A DNA stretch of 64,000 bases from Escherichia coli (GCF_003334305.1 NZ_QOWS01000002.1), one strand, 5' to 3'. Counted from the first letter of the stretch, positions 50,243-54,823 are shown. Notes: a model not told the origin generated them from the sequence alone. A program made the numbers and translations.

Positions 50243-50848
50243 ATGACGCTCTACCAGATAAAACCGCTCTTTCAGTCGCTGTTAAGGCCGACGATGTTTT
50301 GGCTTTATAAGCACCACGTTACAGCGAATCACATCACTCTTACGGCACTGGCGCTTTCTCTTTTTACCGGATTGCTGTTGGTGTTGGTGGCACAACCCAT
50401 CCTCTTTTTGCTATTGCCCATCGTGCTTTTTATCCGTATGGCGCTCAATGCGCTGGATGGCATGTTGGCGCGTGAGTGCAATCAGCAAACACGTCTGGGG
50501 GCGATTTTGAATGAAACTGGCGATGTTATTTCCGATATTGCGCTCTATTTACCGTTTTTATTTTTACCGGAAAGTAACGCATCACTCGTAATACTCATGT
50601 TATTTTGCACCATATTGACTGAGTTTTGTGGTTTACTCGCGCAGACAATTAACGGTATTCGCAGTTATGCCGGTCCATTTGGCAAAAGCGATCGCGCGTT
50701 AATATTTGGTCTGTGGGGTCTGGCCGTTGCCATTTATCCACAGTGGATGCAGTGGAATAATCTTTTATGGAGCATTGCTTCAATTCTGCTTCTCTGGACT
50801 GCGATTAATCGTTGTCGGAGTGTGCTTCTTATGAGCGCTGAAAGATAA
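50243..50848 (+). CDS. ynbA: CDP-alcohol phosphatidyltransferase-family membrane protein
   Basis: Track ORF 50237-50848; multiple TM segments; start approximate. Confidence 0.8.
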   Translation: MTLYQIKPLFQSLLRPTMFWLYKHHVTANHITLTALALSLFTGLLLVLVAQPILFLLLPIVLFIRMALNALDGMLARECNQQTRLGAILNETGDVISDIALYLPFLFLPESNASLVILMLFCTILTEFCGLLAQTINGIRSYAGPFGKSDRALIFGLWGLAVAIYPQWMQWNNLLWSIASILLLWTAINRCRSVLLMSAER

Positions 50849-51744
50849 TGCTGGAAAAATCTCTGGCAACACTTTTCGCGTTGTTAATTTTAGCAACGCT
50901 GATAAACCATTTTCTGCTATGGCGGTTACCGGAGAGAAAAGAGGATGAAGTTACATTACGTATTCGTACCTGGTGGGGCATCGTCATTTGTTTTTCACTG
51001 GTGATTTCAGGTCCACGCTGGATGACGTTGACGTTTTTTGCGCTGATAAGTTTTCTGGCATTGAAAGAATATTGTACGCTTATATCTGTACATTTTCCGC
51101 GGTGGTTATATTGGGTTATTCCTCTTAACTATTTGTTTATCGGTTTTAATTGCTTTGAGCTGTATCTATTATTTATACCTTTGGCTGGGTTTCTAATATT
51201 AGCCACCGGGCAAGTTTTTATGGGGGACCCCTCCGGTTTTCTGCATACCGTGAGCGCCATTTTTTGGGGCTGGATAATGACCGTTTTCGCCTTGAGTCAT
51301 GCCGCCTGGTTATTAATGTTGCCAACCACAAATATCCAGGGCGGGGCGTTACTGGTGTTATTTCTTTTGGCATTAACCGAGTCAAACGATATTGCACAGT
51401 ATTTATGGGGGAAATCCTGCGGCAGAAGAAAAGTGGTCCCCAAAGTCAGCCCGGGAAAAACGCTGGAAGGTCTGGTGGGGGGCGTAATCACCACCATGAT
51501 TGCGTCACTGATTATTGGACCGTTGCTGACACCGCTAAATACATTACAGGCATTATTAGCGGGTTTGTTAATTGGTATTAGTGGTTTTTGCGGCGATGTC
51601 GTGATGTCAGCCATCAAACGAGATATTGGTGTTAAAGATAGTGGGAAACTATTACCAGGACATGGCGGACTCCTTGACAGGATTGACTCATTAATTTTCA
51701 CCGCTCCGGTATTTTTTTATTTTATTCGCTACTGCTGTTACTGA
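50848..51744 (+). CDS. ynbB: CDP-diglyceride synthetase (CdsA)-like membrane protein
   Basis: 298-aa polytopic ORF; start overlaps ynbA stop (ATGA). Confidence 0.8.
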   Translation: MLEKSLATLFALLILATLINHFLLWRLPERKEDEVTLRIRTWWGIVICFSLVISGPRWMTLTFFALISFLALKEYCTLISVHFPRWLYWVIPLNYLFIGFNCFELYLLFIPLAGFLILATGQVFMGDPSGFLHTVSAIFWGWIMTVFALSHAAWLLMLPTTNIQGGALLVLFLLALTESNDIAQYLWGKSCGRRKVVPKVSPGKTLEGLVGGVITTMIASLIIGPLLTPLNTLQALLAGLLIGISGFCGDVVMSAIKRDIGVKDSGKLLPGHGGLLDRIDSLIFTAPVFFYFIRYCCY

Positions 51745-51759
51745 AGGAAAATAGAGAAA

Positions 51760-53517
51760 ATGGAAAATTCACGCATCCATGGGGAACATTTTTTTACCAG
51801 CAGTGATAATACAGCGTTGTTTTATCGGCACTGGCCCGCTTTACAGCCCGGGGCTAAAAAGGTCATCGTCTTATTTCATCGCGGTCATGAACATTCTGGT
51901 CGTCTACAACATCTCGTTGATGAACTGGCGATGCCAGATACTGTTTTTTATGCCTGGGATGCCCGAGGGCATGGACAAACTTCGGGGCCGCGTGGTTATA
52001 GCCCATCTCTTGCGCGTTCAGTGCAGGATGTCGATGAATTTGTTCGTTTTGCTGCCAGCGATAGCCAGGTCGGACTGGATGAGGTGGTAGTGATCGCGCA
52101 AAGCGTCGGCGCAGTGCTGGTTGCCACATGGGTTCATGATTATGCGCCTGCAATTCGCGGGCTGGTGCTGGCTTCTCCGGCCTTTAAGGTTAAATTGTAT
52201 GTACCGCTGGCACGTCCTGCGCTGGCGTTATGGCATCGTCTGCGTGGTCTGTTTTTTATTAATTCCTATGTGAAAGGACGCTATTTGACCCACGATCGGC
52301 AACGGGTGGCGAGTTTCAATAATGATCCGCTGATCACACGGGCGATTGCCGTTAATATCTTGCTCGATCTCTACAAAACGTCTGAACGTATTATTAGAGA
52401 TGCGGCGGCGATTACGCTCCCCACGCAACTTCTGATATCAGGCGATGACTATGTGGTGCATCGCCAACCGCAGATTGATTTTTATCAGAGATTACGTAGC
52501 CCTCTGAAAGAGCTGCATCTGCTGCCAGGCTTTTATCACGACACGTTGGGTGAAGAGAACAGGGCGCAGGCATTTGAAAAAATGCAAAGCTTTATTAGTC
52601 GTTTATATGCTAACAAGTCACAAAAATTTGATTATCAGCATGAAGACCGCACTGGACCATCAGCGGATCGCTGGCGGCTCCTTTCAGGTGGACCCGTGCC
52701 ATTATCGCCGGTTGATTTGGCGTATCGCTTTATGCGAAAGGCGATGAAATTGTTCGGGGCGCACTCTGCGGGCCTGCATCTCGGAATGAGCACCGGCTTT
52801 GATTCAGGCAGTTCCCTGGATTATGTCTATCAAAATCAACCGCAAGGCAGTAACGCATTCGGGCGCTTAATTGACAAAATCTACCTGAACAGTGTTGGCT
52901 GGCGCGGTATTCGCCAGCGTAAAACCCATTTACAAATACTGATTAAACAAGCCGTTGCCGATCTCCACGCCAAAGGTTTAGCCGTCCGCGTGGTTGACAT
53001 TGCCGCAGGGCATGGGCGCTATGTACTGGATGCACTGGCAAACGAGCCTGCCGTAAGCGATATTTTGTTACGTGATTACAGTGAGTTAAATGTTGCACAG
53101 GGGCAAGCGATGATTGCCCAACGGGGAATGTCTGGGCGGGTGCGTTTTGAACAGGGCGATGCGTTTAACCCGGAGGAACTCAGCGCGTTAACTCCGCGGC
53201 CTACGCTGGCGATTGTCTCTGGCCTGTATGAGCTTTTTCCCGAAAATGAGCAGGTAAAAAACTCACTCGCAGGTCTTGCCAATGCCATCGAACCGGGCGG
53301 CATTCTCATCTACACCGGGCAGCCGTGGCACCCTCAACTGGAGATGATTGCCGGGGTGTTAACCAGTCATAAAGATGGTAAACCGTGGGTAATGCGCGTG
53401 CGTTCGCAAGGGGAGATGGATTCACTCGTGCGTGATGCCGGATTTGATAAATGCACACAACGGATTGATGAGTGGGGTATTTTTACGGTTTCGATGGCGG
53501 TGCGTCGTGATAACTGA
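51760..53517 (+). CDS. ynbC: fused alpha/beta-hydrolase / methyltransferase-like protein
   Basis: 585-aa ORF, N-terminal alpha/beta hydrolase (lysophospholipase-like), C-terminal glycine-rich MTase-like segment. Confidence 0.8.
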
Positions 53518-54823
53518 ACGTCGGAACGTATTGCTACAAGGCGCTGGCTGGTTATTGTTGCTGGCCCCGTTTTTCTTCTTCACCTATGGATCTCTTAATC
53601 AGTTCACCGCGGTTCAGGACCTTAACAGCCATGATATCCCCAGTCAGGTATTCGGTTGGGAAACGGCGATCCCTTTTCTTCCCTGGACTATTGTTCCTTA
53701 CTGGAGTCTGGATCTTTTATATGGATTTTCGCTGTTCGTTTGTAGCACGACATTCGAACAGCGCCGACTTGTCCACCGGCTTATTCTGGCAACGGTAATG
53801 GCCTGCTGCGGTTTTTTGCTCTATCCGCTGAAGTTTAGTTTTATCCGTCCTGAAGTGAGTGGGGTGACGGGATGGCTATTTTCGCAACTTGAACTGTTTG
53901 ATCTGCCTTATAACCAGTCTCCTTCGCTGCATATTATTCTCTGCTGGCTACTTTGGCGTCACTTTCGTCAGCATCTGGCTGAGAGGTGGCGTAAAGTCTG
54001 TGGCGGATGGTTTTTACTCATCGCTATTTCTACTCTGACGACCTGGCAGCATCATTTTATTGATGTCATCACAGGGCTGGCGGTAGGTATGTTGATTGAC
54101 TGGATGGTGCCCGTCGATCGTCGTTGGAATTATCAGAAACCTGATCAACGTCGAATCAAAATAGCACTGCCATATGTCGTAGGCGCGGGCTCGTGCATTG
54201 TGTTGATGGAGCTAATGGTGATGATTCAGTTATGGTGGTCAGTCTGGTTATGTTGGCCAGTATTATCGCTACTCATTATTGGCCGTGGGTACGGTGGGCT
54301 TGGCGCGATAACAACAGGGAAAGATAGTCAGGGGAAACTCCCGCCCGCCGTTTACTGGCTGACATTGCCCTGCCGCATCGGGATGTGGCTGTCTATGCGT
54401 TGGTTTTGTCGTCGCCTGGAGCCGGTGAGCAAAATGACTGCTGGTGTTTATTTAGGGGCGTTTCCACGACATATTCCGGCACAGAATGCGGTTCTGGACG
54501 TCACCTTTGAATTCCCTCGCGGACGAGCCACAAAAGATCGACTCTATTTCTGTGTACCGATGCTGGATCTGGTGGTTCCGGAAGAGGGGGAGCTCCGACA
54601 GGCCGTGGCGATGCTGGAAACATTACGCGAAGAGCAAGGCAGCGTTCTGGTCCATTGCGCGTTGGGATTATCGCGCAGTGCGCTGGTAGTGGCGGCATGG
54701 TTGTTATGTTACGGACACTGTAAAACCGTTGATGAAGCGATTAGTTATATTCGAGCCAGACGTTCGCATATTGTGCTTAAGGAAGATCACAAAGCGATGC
54801 TGAAATTATGGGAAAACAGGTAA
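53432..54823 (+). CDS. ynbD: membrane phosphatase (PAP2-like TM domain plus C-terminal dual-specificity phosphatase domain)
   Basis: Track ORF; CX5R phosphatase motif HCALGLSRS; true start uncertain (ATG at 53468 or TTG at 53531), so the overlap with ynbC may be shorter. Confidence 0.75.

Follow-up and report, generated by a model that had tools for sequence, protein, structure and literature searches.

Gene content and layout of the locus

The window, i.e. the whole analysed stretch of 64,000 nucleotides of Escherichia coli DNA (GCF_003334305.1, NZ_QOWS01000002.1), contains the genes ynbA, ynbB, ynbC and ynbD. They matched the RefSeq annotation of ynbA/ynbB/ynbC/ynbD in E. coli, with 100% identity to strain A7. 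All four are known genes, and YnbB alone has a published role. The features are:

50073-50242, + strand: ydbD-ynbA intergenic region, a 170-nt gap from the ydbD stop to the ynbA ATG, which holds the reported ynbA promoter
50243-50848, + strand: ynbA, membrane protein of the CDP-alcohol phosphatidyltransferase family (201 aa), whose catalytic motif is a variant
50447-50524, + strand: YnbA catalytic signature, N69-A-L-D72-G-M-L-A-R-(8)-G-A-I-L-N90-E-T-G-D94
50848-51744, + strand: ynbB, 298-aa CDP-diacylglycerol synthase paralogue
51760-53517, + strand: ynbC, 585-aa serine hydrolase / SAM-dependent methyltransferase fusion
51853-52557, + strand: YnbC hydrolase domain (aa 32-266), PF12146, monoacylglycerol-lipase family
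52582-53505, + strand: YnbC methyltransferase domain (aa 275-582), PF12147
53507-54823, + strand: ynbD, 438-aa predicted bifunctional membrane protein with a PAP2/SMS-like domain, two further TM helices and a DSP domain
53540-54241, + strand: YnbD N-terminal PAP2-superfamily domain (aa 12-245), sphingomyelin-synthase-like
54446-54817, + strand: YnbD C-terminal dual-specificity phosphatase domain (aa 314-437), PF00782

The sequence-only reading had described four co-directional, tightly packed genes, and coordinates, strand and junctions all agreed with this. The stop of ynbA and the start of ynbB have one base in common (ATAATG), a 15-nt spacer separates ynbB from ynbC, and ynbC and ynbD overlap by 11 nt. 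This overlap is counted from the annotated GTG start of ynbD at 53507 (the mechanical ORF begins at 53432), which is backed by the aligned basic N-termini of orthologues. The chromosomal site in E. coli is stable, with ynbABCD lying between pdxI/ydbD and azoR.

The ynbA promoter is activated by BglJ-RcsB, which binds 65-68 bp upstream of where transcription begins; known targets of this regulator, leuO and bgl, are H-NS-repressed (PMC3950696). ynbB is induced by cold (PMC11413397). A consensus sigma-70 scan of the ynbA upstream region gave nothing exceeding the shuffled background.

In the literature searched, we found no paper that names the product or lipid made by the module, or that says what ynbA, ynbC or ynbD do, and a role in MPIase or compound I synthesis was reported for YnbB only. 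The earlier description of a function-unknown system holds for these three genes and for the product. It does not hold for YnbB, for which CDP-diacylglycerol synthesis is published.

Domains and active sites of the four proteins

The family assignments made from the sequence were borne out by profile searches for all four proteins. YnbA matched PF01066 (CDP-OH_P_transf) at 3.8e-9 over residues 27-175. Its top NCBIfam models were archaetidylinositol-phosphate synthase (1e-20) and PIP synthase (2e-12), both under cut-off, and its top PDB match was the M. tuberculosis PIP synthase 6h5a (9e-8).

The canonical signature D1xxD2GxxARx8Gx3D3x3D4 is altered in YnbA, where D1 and D3 are replaced by Asn (NxxDGxxAR...GxxxNxxxD). 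D1 and D3 are Mg-1 ligands in the M. tuberculosis PIP synthase (MtPgsA1). YnbA retains D2 and also D4, the presumed base. The N,D,N,D pattern was present in all 81 readable orthologues, in the most distant relative and in both YnbA::YnbC fusions. YnbA R151 and K148 align with the PIP-synthase acceptor-phosphate residues R155 and R152, and the correspondence of R190 to R195 is approximate only. V95 stands in place of R94, so that there is no Arg/Lys after D4; this basic residue is critical in PIP synthase. Together with the variant motif, D2, D4, R77, R151 and others are strictly conserved across three proteobacterial classes, as is typical of an active rather than a decayed site. With two of the canonical Asp and the basic residue behind D4 missing, YnbA may be unable to carry out the classical reaction.

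YnbB matched PF01148 (CTP_transf_1) at 4e-70. The CdsA signature S..KR....KD......PGHGG..DR.D is intact from S254 and kept in 70 orthologues, in which the family-specific N-terminal half is likewise conserved. YnbB is not equivalent to the housekeeping CdsA: the NCBIfam CdsA equivalog model gave 111.9 bits against a cut-off of 385, and matched the C-terminal part only. YnbB makes CDP-diacylglycerol in vitro and is the reported backup enzyme for the glycolipid MPIase; overproduced YnbB increases MPIase levels and brings them back when CdsA is depleted (PMC6362211, PMC7018664). It does not complement a cdsA knockout or support bulk phospholipid synthesis, and deletion of ynbB at 37 °C gave no phospholipid or MPIase phenotype (PMC6362211, PMC7018664).

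YnbC matched PF12146 (Hydrolase_4, 2.3e-67) and PF12147 (Methyltransf_20, 5.5e-153), and the fusion is kept in 407 clusters (50% identity clustering, E<=1e-30). In profile searches against PDB, the hydrolase domain matched M. tuberculosis and human monoglyceride lipases (1e-38 to 1e-33). Ser115/Asp230/His260 and the SAM motif were conserved in 85 of 85 orthologues, and the residues of the oxyanion motif HRGHEHSGR (H40/G42/H43/E44/H45) in at least 97% of the 85. The methyltransferase domain has a class I Rossmann-like fold with motif I (D/E)xGxGxG and the acidic residue ending strand 2. In the fold search an uncharacterised protein ranked first, ahead of natural-product and isoprenoid methyltransferases; by profile, Cfa was matched weakly (3e-4). 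No substrate could be inferred for this domain from the profile and fold searches.

For YnbD, the C-terminal phosphatase with HCALGLSRS was correctly recognised in the first reading (PF00782 DSPc, 2.6e-26), and a second, N-terminal domain was overlooked. The N-terminal half matches Pfam PAP2/PAP2_3, with E-values of only ~1e-4. Its best structural matches were head-group transferases, namely sphingomyelin synthase-related protein and IPC synthase, and PgpB and LpxE were also among the fold matches. SMS-like proteins reached Z 14.6 vs 11.7 for phosphatases, a modest gap from one model. PAP2 motif C2 is PSLH (PSxH in 77 of 78 orthologues) and motif C3 is HHxxD in 78 of 78, with the C3 Arg absent. 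The C1 Lys is not conserved in the family (R47/H11/Q8/K6, wrong spacing), and an RP remnant of C1 is kept. YnbD resembles SMS/IPC-type enzymes in its six-TM PAP2 fold, its His-His-Asp triad, the lack of the phosphatase C1/C3 basic residues and a predicted exoplasmic active site, with the topology taken from K/R counts rather than from a dedicated predictor.

The P-loop HCALGLSRS lies at residues 383-391 of 438, with C384 and R390 present in all 76 orthologues; D354, the candidate general acid, is invariant in orthologue alignment A2. The PDB relatives of the DSP domain were DUSP26/13/14 and archaeal PTPs, and PTPMT1 was weaker (2.5e-4), behind protein DUSPs. CALGLSR is closer to protein-directed DUSPs than to PTEN/PTPMT1 and has no extra basic residues. 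The membrane tether and operon context speak for a lipid substrate of this domain. YnbD is more than a phosphatase on a membrane anchor, as it joins a predicted PAP2/SMS-like enzyme domain to the DSP domain.

The module across genomes

Co-occurrence across genomes, proposed earlier as a check, was found: the linkage recurs in 85 loci of many genera. Among these 85 loci around YnbC relatives, YnbA was a partner in 85, YnbD-N in 83, YnbD-C in 77, YnbB in 71 and a PlsC-type acyltransferase (AT), which keeps HX4D and FPEGTR, in 69. Gene orders included A-C-D-AT-B (46 loci), A-B-AT-C-D-small (11) and A-C-D-small (5), some loci have module genes on opposite strands, and YnbA and YnbC are fused in two cases. 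Such recurrence of the linkage, with varied orders and fusions, goes far beyond what chance would give. The earlier proposal of a single functional lipid module is strongly supported by the way in which the genes occur together, change order and fuse in different Proteobacteria.

At least 421 species genomes carry the module family. YnbA, YnbC and YnbD are the module core; Morganellaceae-type loci keep A-C-D without YnbB. The usual form has five to six genes, including the acyltransferase and, in enterics, also a small 2-TM ORF. The E. coli module is reduced, the acyltransferase and the small membrane ORF having been lost. The four genes named in the first reading are linked as claimed, but form a reduced version of a larger module.

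The neighbourhood survey found no further gene family recurring next to the module across genera, which suggests that the acceptor is probably a common metabolite. The module is also carried on conjugative and other plasmids, and resolvase or IS elements adjoin it in some genomes. The cluster is missing in ~15% of complete E. coli genomes (~800 of 5426), in some by clean deletion, so any product is dispensable. Within E. coli, ynbA, ynbC (dN/dS 0.13) and ynbD (dN/dS 0.15) are under purifying selection. In PADLOC, none of six module proteins matched any defence-system model (E<=0.01).

Proposed pathway and alternative explanations

We consider it fairly probable that ynbABCD is a reduced form, in E. 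coli, of a proteobacterial module that is widespread and moves horizontally, and that this module builds a specialised glycerophospholipid of low abundance from CDP-diacylglycerol and goes on to process it. This minor lipid would be made conditionally by a dedicated CDP-diacylglycerol-dependent route, the reported inducing conditions being BglJ-RcsB at the ynbA promoter and cold for ynbB.

Phosphatidic acid would come from the PlsC-type acyltransferase in the full module, and housekeeping PlsC would serve in E. coli. YnbB would turn it into a dedicated CDP-diacylglycerol pool, a reaction shown in the literature. YnbA, with its altered metal site (two Mg ligands being Asn) and retained catalytic base, would move the phosphatidyl group onto a hydroxyl of a common metabolite that would be anionic and probably phosphorylated. 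In the cytoplasm, the DSP domain of YnbD may then strip the head-group phosphate, as PTPMT1 does with phosphatidylglycerol phosphate. YnbC would use SAM to methylate the lipid or its head group, and its monoacylglycerol-lipase-like domain could take off an acyl chain. As YnbC is adjacent to YnbA in most genomes and fused to it in two, the two are presumably physically coupled. Finally, the periplasm-facing PAP2/SMS-like domain of YnbD may hydrolyse the phospho-head group, or pass it to another envelope acceptor, freeing diacylglycerol.

The same enzymes could instead serve remodelling or salvage, with no new head group. Lyso- or diacyl-lipids, or diacylglycerol, would be substrates for deacylation by the lipase, re-acylation and re-activation of the backbone would fall to the acyltransferase and YnbB, YnbA would remake a PGP-type lipid, and the YnbD domains would be PGP, PA or lipid-pyrophosphate phosphatases in a stress-induced recycling of acyl chains or diacylglycerol. 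The monoacylglycerol-lipase family of the YnbC hydrolase, the intact PlsC-type motifs, the likeness of YnbA to PgsA and PIP-synthase-type enzymes and the PgpB and LpxE matches of YnbD fit this idea, as do the absence of linked precursor-synthesis genes and the response of the operon to cold and to envelope stress. We still regard this explanation as unlikely, since the SAM-methyltransferase domain, invariant and highly conserved, would be left without a task, the family-specific N/N active site of YnbA would go unexplained, and the steps are ones for which E. coli already has PgsA, PgpA/B/C, PlsC and DgkA. A quite doubtful proposal is an auxiliary MPIase branch, in which CDP-diacylglycerol from YnbB and GlcNAc-1-phosphate give GlcNAc-PP-DAG (compound I) via YnbA, after which this pyrophosphate-linked glycolipid is trimmed or modified by the YnbD PAP2 domain and YnbC, chiefly at low temperature. 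Many E. coli genomes do without the cluster although MPIase is reportedly essential, and at 37 °C strains deleted for ynbB have undiminished MPIase. The effects of YnbB overproduction and its cold induction agree with this branch, but the MPIase authors ascribe compound I synthesis to CdsA/YnbB themselves. CMP displacement from CDP-DAG is textbook chemistry of the YnbA family, and a metal site with two negative charges fewer plus basic pocket residues would suit an anionic sugar-phosphate; the invariant base D4, however, argues for a hydroxyl and not a phosphate nucleophile. Lipid pyrophosphates are common substrates of PAP2 enzymes, but a glycosyltransferase or sugar-nucleotide gene is linked in no genus, and the Morganellaceae-type loci do without YnbB.

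Two further explanations depart from lipid synthesis. A membrane-lipid-sensing signalling device, with YnbA as a non-catalytic CDP-DAG/lipid-binding scaffold and the YnbD DSP domain as a protein phosphatase, would account for the non-canonical residues of YnbA (two of four Asp and the residue after D4) and for the DSP domain having protein-directed DUSPs as its nearest relatives of known structure. It is very improbable given the strict conservation of the variant motif with D2, D4, R77 and R151, the module's own substrate-supply enzymes (CDP-DAG synthase and acyltransferase) and the lack of a linked kinase or regulator. Anti-phage defence, or other mobile-element cargo acting via membrane alteration, seems hardly credible: plasmid carriage, adjoining resolvase or IS elements, patchy presence in E. 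coli and a ynbA promoter in a regulon with H-NS-repressed targets would suit it, but the PADLOC matches were 0 of 6, the E. coli chromosomal site is stable, and every component comes from an ordinary lipid-metabolic enzyme family.

Comparison with known systems

Like PmtA-type N-methyltransferases and the cyclopropane synthase Cfa, YnbC has a class-I SAM-dependent methyltransferase encoded among lipid enzymes, but without specific similarity. Its hydrolase resembles monoacylglycerol lipases/lysophospholipases (human MGLL, M. tuberculosis Rv0183, Bacillus YtpA) in the strong profile match, the Ser-Asp-His triad and HG..EHSGR. It differs in the nucleophile elbow (AQSVG vs GxSxG) and in always being fused to the PF12147 methyltransferase, twice also to YnbA. 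The YnbD N-domain shares only 11-13% identity with sphingomyelin synthase and IPC synthase (Aur1) and, unlike these, is fused to a cytoplasmic DSP; most of the module's host bacteria are not known to make ceramide.

YnbB shares with CdsA the full signature, a homologous C-terminal half and CDP-DAG synthesis in vitro, whereas its N-terminal half is distinct and family-conserved, and it gives no bulk phospholipid support. Its place in an A-C-D-AT-B module across Proteobacteria is a context that the papers on the CdsA/YnbB-MPIase route do not consider.

Close parallels are the two-step routes of PgsA or PIP synthase with a phosphatase (PgpA/B/C, PTPMT1, PIP phosphatase), as the module likewise combines a phosphatase with a predicted CDP-DAG-dependent CDP-alcohol phosphotransferase. 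YnbA has Arg/Lys residues aligning with the acceptor-phosphate pocket of PIP synthase, and the Cys-based phosphatase of YnbD belongs to one superfamily with PTPMT1. The module departs from these routes in the Asn at D1/D3 and the missing basic residue after D4 of YnbA, in the fusion of the YnbD phosphatase to a second, PAP2-type domain, and in having the lipase-methyltransferase YnbC as an obligatory partner.

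Gene layout of the ynb locus

The region 50243-54823 of the window was 100% identical to E. coli strain A7, where the four genes are annotated under the same names:

50243-50848, +, ynbA
50848-51744, +, ynbB
51760-53517, +, ynbC
53507-54823, +, ynbD

The ORF list of the window confirmed that the genes are co-directional. The tight junctions described in the sequence-only reading were also found: overlaps at ynbA-ynbB and ynbC-ynbD, and a 15-nt gap at ynbB-ynbC. The ynbA stop and the ynbB start have one base in common (ATAATG). The ynbC/ynbD overlap is 11 nt with the annotated GTG start at 53507, while the mechanical ORF runs from 53432; the aligned basic N-termini of the orthologues support 53507 as the probable start. 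The upstream neighbours are pdxI (ydbC) and ydbD, and the downstream neighbours are azoR (opposite strand) and hrpA. Promoter and terminator scans of the region gave no signal exceeding the shuffled background.

Another ORF (54808-55176, +, 122 aa) starts inside the end of ynbD. It was rejected as a module member, as it is antisense to azoR and unlike the small ORF found with the module in other enterics. It is most likely spurious.

The neighbouring ydbD (47760-50072) encodes 770 aa and is annotated as a DUF2773 bactofilin; the stretch that holds it has a low GC content (0.38-0.47). In E. coli AHB3 (comparison locus L092:1-132) a frameshift has made the gene a pseudogene, and its linkage to the module is confined to close relatives of E. 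coli.

Domain assignments

Profile searches bore out all lipid-enzyme domain calls made earlier for the four proteins. YnbA matched PF01066 (CDP-alcohol phosphatidyltransferase, 3.8e-9). Its NCBIfam matches were all under the cut-off: archaetidylinositol-phosphate synthase (1e-20), phosphatidylinositol-phosphate (PIP) synthase (2e-12) and PgsA (1e-6). The closest solved relative was the PIP synthase of M. tuberculosis (9e-8). YnbB matched PF01148 (4e-70) with an intact CdsA signature. In YnbC, a Hydrolase_4 domain (2e-67) is fused to PF12147 (Methyltransf_20, 5.5e-153, the entire model covered). For YnbD, the phosphatase motif HCALGLSRS stood (DSPc, 2.6e-26), and weak N-terminal PAP2/PAP2_3 matches, missed by the earlier reading, were added.

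The hydrolase domain of YnbC belongs to the monoacylglycerol-lipase family, with matches of 1e-38 to 1e-33 to the M. tuberculosis and human enzymes. The highly confident methyltransferase model (pLDDT 94.6) showed a class-I fold. A fold search ranked an uncharacterised protein from Bordetella first and generic small-molecule methyltransferases next, which gives no basis for naming a substrate. The triad Ser115/Asp230/His260 and the SAM-binding residues D413/G417/G419/D439 were conserved in 85/85 YnbC orthologues.

Conservation of the module across Proteobacteria

The hydrolase-methyltransferase fusion family comprised 407 clusters (50% identity, E<=1e-30), and at least 421 species-representative genomes carried it. 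Hosts among the matches listed were Enterobacterales, many Pseudomonas, Burkholderiales, Rhodocyclales, Neisseriales, Bradyrhizobium, Shinella and Lysobacter. Partners were counted among stop-to-stop ORFs up to 6 kb from YnbC in 85 loci, using the E. coli proteins and two extra proteins first met in Snodgrassella as queries.

Table. Partners found near YnbC in 85 loci; several of the misses fall at contig ends
YnbA: 85/85
YnbD N-domain: 83/85
YnbD C-domain: 77/85
YnbB: 71/85
PlsC-type acyltransferase (PF01553): 69/85
ORF of ~135 aa with two TM segments: 17/85

Table. Gene orders (A-D, YnbA-YnbD; AT, acyltransferase; small, ~135-aa ORF)
A-C-D-AT-B: 46 loci; Pseudomonas, Burkholderiales, others
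A-B-AT-C-D-small: 11 loci; Citrobacter, Hafnia, others
A-C-D-small: 5 loci; Proteus, Providencia, Morganella, Xenorhabdus, one Enterobacter

Divergent-strand layouts were present in metagenomic contigs, and two contigs carried a YnbA::YnbC fusion. Clustering of the ORFs flanking the 85 loci gave no further linked family, head-group precursor genes included, that recurred across genera beyond local synteny. The co-occurrence proposed as a check in the sequence-only reading was observed: YnbA, YnbC, YnbD and YnbB recur together. From the partner counts, the shuffled orders, the fusions and the lack of another recurrent family, we conclude that the genes are one functional unit with A+C+D as its core, and that YnbB and the acyltransferase are accessories for substrate supply.

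The acyltransferase (214-235 aa) lies inside the module, for example in L002:7364-8008 (Snodgrassella alvi), L010-L017 and L091:7524-8165. Its HX4D and FPEGTR motifs are kept across orthologues. The small ORF has no Pfam match and carries the motifs WRFLLL and CWRLWLD..YF; in enterobacterial-type clusters it overlaps the 3' end of ynbD (L002:11026-11433, L004:11020-11430).

In the Vibrio fluvialis locus, a 'short ynbB' (L004:7610-8008) joins the YnbB N-terminus in frame with the C-terminal tail of the acyltransferase and is a deletion remnant. A resolvase gene (L004:6000-6650) close upstream of this cluster hints at its recent horizontal acquisition. Citrobacter sp. Cu233 has two module copies (L011, L020), with YnbC 77% and 66% identical to that of E. 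coli. In the second copy, YnbA is a 144-aa ORF missing the catalytic motif region, and no YnbB was detected.

Distribution in E. coli and on plasmids

Neither the acyltransferase nor the small ORF was found in the window by tblastn, and the E. coli chromosomal copy has just the 15-nt gap between ynbB and ynbC. We conclude that the E. coli form is A-B-C-D, with the acyltransferase and the small ORF lost. A match was present in 4626 of 5426 complete E. coli genomes (4284 with at least 80% of the cluster), and ~800 had no match whatever. In some E. coli strains, F2_81 among them, a clean deletion reaches from the pdxI stop up to the last 72 bp of ynbD (L090 7001-7072; equivalent to 47760-54751 of the window) and takes out ydbD and ynbABCD.

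The full module form was found on real plasmids of Citrobacter, Enterobacter and E. coli, including a conjugative IncK2/Z plasmid. Shinella, Sinorhizobium and Burkholderia also carried it on replicons that are listed as plasmids. The IncK2/Z conjugative plasmid NZ_CP027341 of E. coli 2015C-3121 (L091 6001-9918) holds a second, Citrobacter-like copy (A-B-AT-C) with ~70% DNA identity to the chromosomal one; similar copies occur on Citrobacter and Enterobacter plasmids. No ynbD is annotated past ynbC on NZ_CP027341, and IS66-family genes lie ~1.7 kb downstream.

In a single pair of E. coli alleles with few substitutions, dN/dS was 0.24 for ynbA, 0.62 for ynbB, 0.13 for ynbC and 0.15 for ynbD. These values would fit a constrained core made up of ynbA, ynbC and ynbD. 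An 889-aa E. coli protein (record P0002) combines PF01148, hydrolase and methyltransferase in an apparent ynbB::ynbC read-through fusion. As it has one member sequence, it may reflect a mutation or a sequencing error.

The active site of YnbA

The canonical CDP-alcohol phosphotransferase signature, D1xxD2GxxARx8Gx3D3x3D4 (D1-D4, the four canonical Asp), reads N69xxD72GxxARx8Gx3N90x3D94 in YnbA. The pattern N,D,N,D was found in 81/81 readable orthologues, both fusions and the most distant relative. In M. tuberculosis PIP synthase, D1, D2 and D3 are ligands of Mg-1 and D3 and D4 of Mg-2; the catalytic base is presumed to be D4 (PMC6506517). By these roles, YnbA has retained the base while two metal ligands are neutralised. 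The idea that D3 is the base, and that YnbA has hence lost it, was rejected, since the residue given as the presumed base is present in YnbA.

The Arg/Lys after D4, which is critical for inositol-phosphate binding, is missing in YnbA. The acceptor-phosphate pocket residues R155 and R152 of PIP synthase have R151 and K148 as their aligned counterparts in YnbA. Judging from the residues, we infer that YnbA is active and that its metal site is altered; CDP-diacylglycerol (CDP-DAG) would be attacked by the deprotonated hydroxyl of an acceptor that is anionic and probably phosphorylated.

YnbD has two domains, probably on two faces of the membrane

Table. Structural matches of the YnbD N-domain, ranked by Z (structure; Z; accompanying match figure)
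Human sphingomyelin synthase-related protein: 8ijr; 14.6; 184
The same human protein: 8ijq; 13.9; 187
Yeast IPC synthase Aur1: 9ivc; 12.9; 189
LpxE: 6ebu; 11.7; 146
PgpB: 8bm3; 11.3; 149
LPP1: 9l0i; 9.9; 155

The motif PSxH was kept in 77/78 orthologues and HHxxD in 78/78. Compared with true PAP2 phosphatases, YnbD has the His-His-Asp set but neither the conserved C1 Lys nor the C3 Arg, as is usual in the transferase branch. That the N-domain is transferase-like and not hydrolase-like is no more than suggested.

In the dual-specificity phosphatase (DSP) domain, Cys384/Arg390 were present in 76/76 orthologues, and Asp354 was invariant in a five-sequence alignment. Its nearest solved relatives are protein DUSPs, whereas PTPMT1 matched at only 2.5e-4; a lipid specificity is suggested by the context. 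Helix positions and K/R counts place motifs C2 and C3 on the periplasmic side and the DSP domain in the cytoplasm, so each face of the inner membrane probably carries one predicted active site of YnbD.

A search for domain partners of the DSP subfamily through homologues of the YnbD C-terminus returned almost entirely YnbD fragments. Many Shigella flexneri records hold such fragments only (P0277, P0288, P0298, P0300), which suggests that YnbD is decaying in this lineage.

Proposed pathway and alternatives

The module probably encodes a dedicated CDP-DAG-dependent pathway to a minor, conditionally produced lipid. Phosphatidic acid would come from the acyltransferase, whose gene is absent in E. 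coli, and would be converted to CDP-DAG by YnbB, an activity shown in the literature. YnbA would then form phosphatidyl-X(-phosphate), and the DSP domain of YnbD would dephosphorylate the head group. YnbC may methylate and/or deacylate the product, and the periplasmic domain of YnbD may hydrolyse or transfer the phospho-head group.

YnbB is a paralogue of the housekeeping CDP-diacylglycerol synthase CdsA: the C-terminal halves are homologous, the N-terminal halves unrelated. YnbB makes CDP-DAG in vitro, and its overproduction gives more of the glycolipid MPIase. On CdsA depletion it restores MPIase, not bulk phospholipid. Deletion of ynbB has no phenotype at 37 C, and cold induces it together with cdsA (all PMC6362211, PMC7018664, PMC11413397). 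Phosphoglyceride-linked ECA does not require ynbB (PMC8609368). An auxiliary branch of MPIase synthesis, with GlcNAc-PP-DAG made by YnbA, is nevertheless unlikely: the cluster is dispensable, no sugar genes are linked, A-C-D loci without YnbB exist, and YnbA retains the D4 base. The retained base also takes weight from a phosphate-nucleophile (pyrophosphate-lipid) mechanism. A lipid remodelling or salvage loop is doubtful, as it accounts neither for the invariant methyltransferase nor for the N/N site of YnbA. A signalling device with YnbA as a pseudo-enzyme, set against the active enzyme favoured by the residues, is very unlikely. The module gave no PADLOC matches; a defence system was discarded on this ground and is extremely improbable.

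A further, rather unlikely possibility is that YnbA-type proteins (NxxDG...NxxxD) form a separate catalytic class among the CDP-alcohol phosphotransferases. Together with an obligatory YnbC and the two-faced YnbD, they might build an undescribed methylated or unusual phospholipid, whose phospho-head group is passed periplasmically to an envelope acceptor by a bacterial sphingomyelin-synthase-like transferase. A sub-variant has YnbA forming a pyrophosphate-linked DAG-PP-X lipid. If the head-group-donor reading is true, a head-group-donor lipid cycle has gone unrecognised in E. coli and hundreds of other Proteobacteria, and the real job of YnbB is to feed it, not MPIase synthesis. The genomic context of YnbB speaks for it as a supplier of YnbA.

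Comparison with known systems

The genes are already annotated and one of them, ynbB, is partly characterised; no new sequence was discovered. The searchable literature, with PMC6544855 (JBC 2019), BBRC 2019 and FEMS Lett 2023 represented through citing reviews, named no function for ynbA, ynbC or ynbD and no product of the module. The claim of an undefined product thus stands, qualified by the reported CDP-DAG/MPIase role of YnbB. In the searchable literature the four genes were nowhere handled as a unit, and PF12147 was not mentioned. None of the literature found describes how far the module extends or how it is arranged, its core of A+C+D, the invariant N/N motif of YnbA, a YnbD that is two-faced and sphingomyelin-synthase-like, or the genomic context of YnbB as an argument for feeding YnbA.

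BglJ-RcsB activates the ynbA promoter (PMC3950696). Polyphosphate built up in a ynbC transposon mutant of one strain background, not in Keio. This was rejected as a clue to ynbC function, as it is strain-dependent and was put down to general stress by the authors (PMC2435150).

The comparative data supply the exact genes, the catalytic residues and a fuller gene set, with the acyltransferase, for experiments. Knowing the product would bring a further lipid, or a reaction that transfers head groups, into the Gram-negative envelope and decide whether the MPIase role of YnbB is native or a side activity. It would also reveal the chemistry of the N/N active site among CDP-alcohol phosphotransferases and give PF12147 and the bacterial sphingomyelin-synthase-like domain a function. 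E. coli lipid metabolism is regarded as essentially complete. Against this stands a conserved lipid module of five to six genes that is under purifying selection and occurs in at least 421 species genomes as well as on plasmids.
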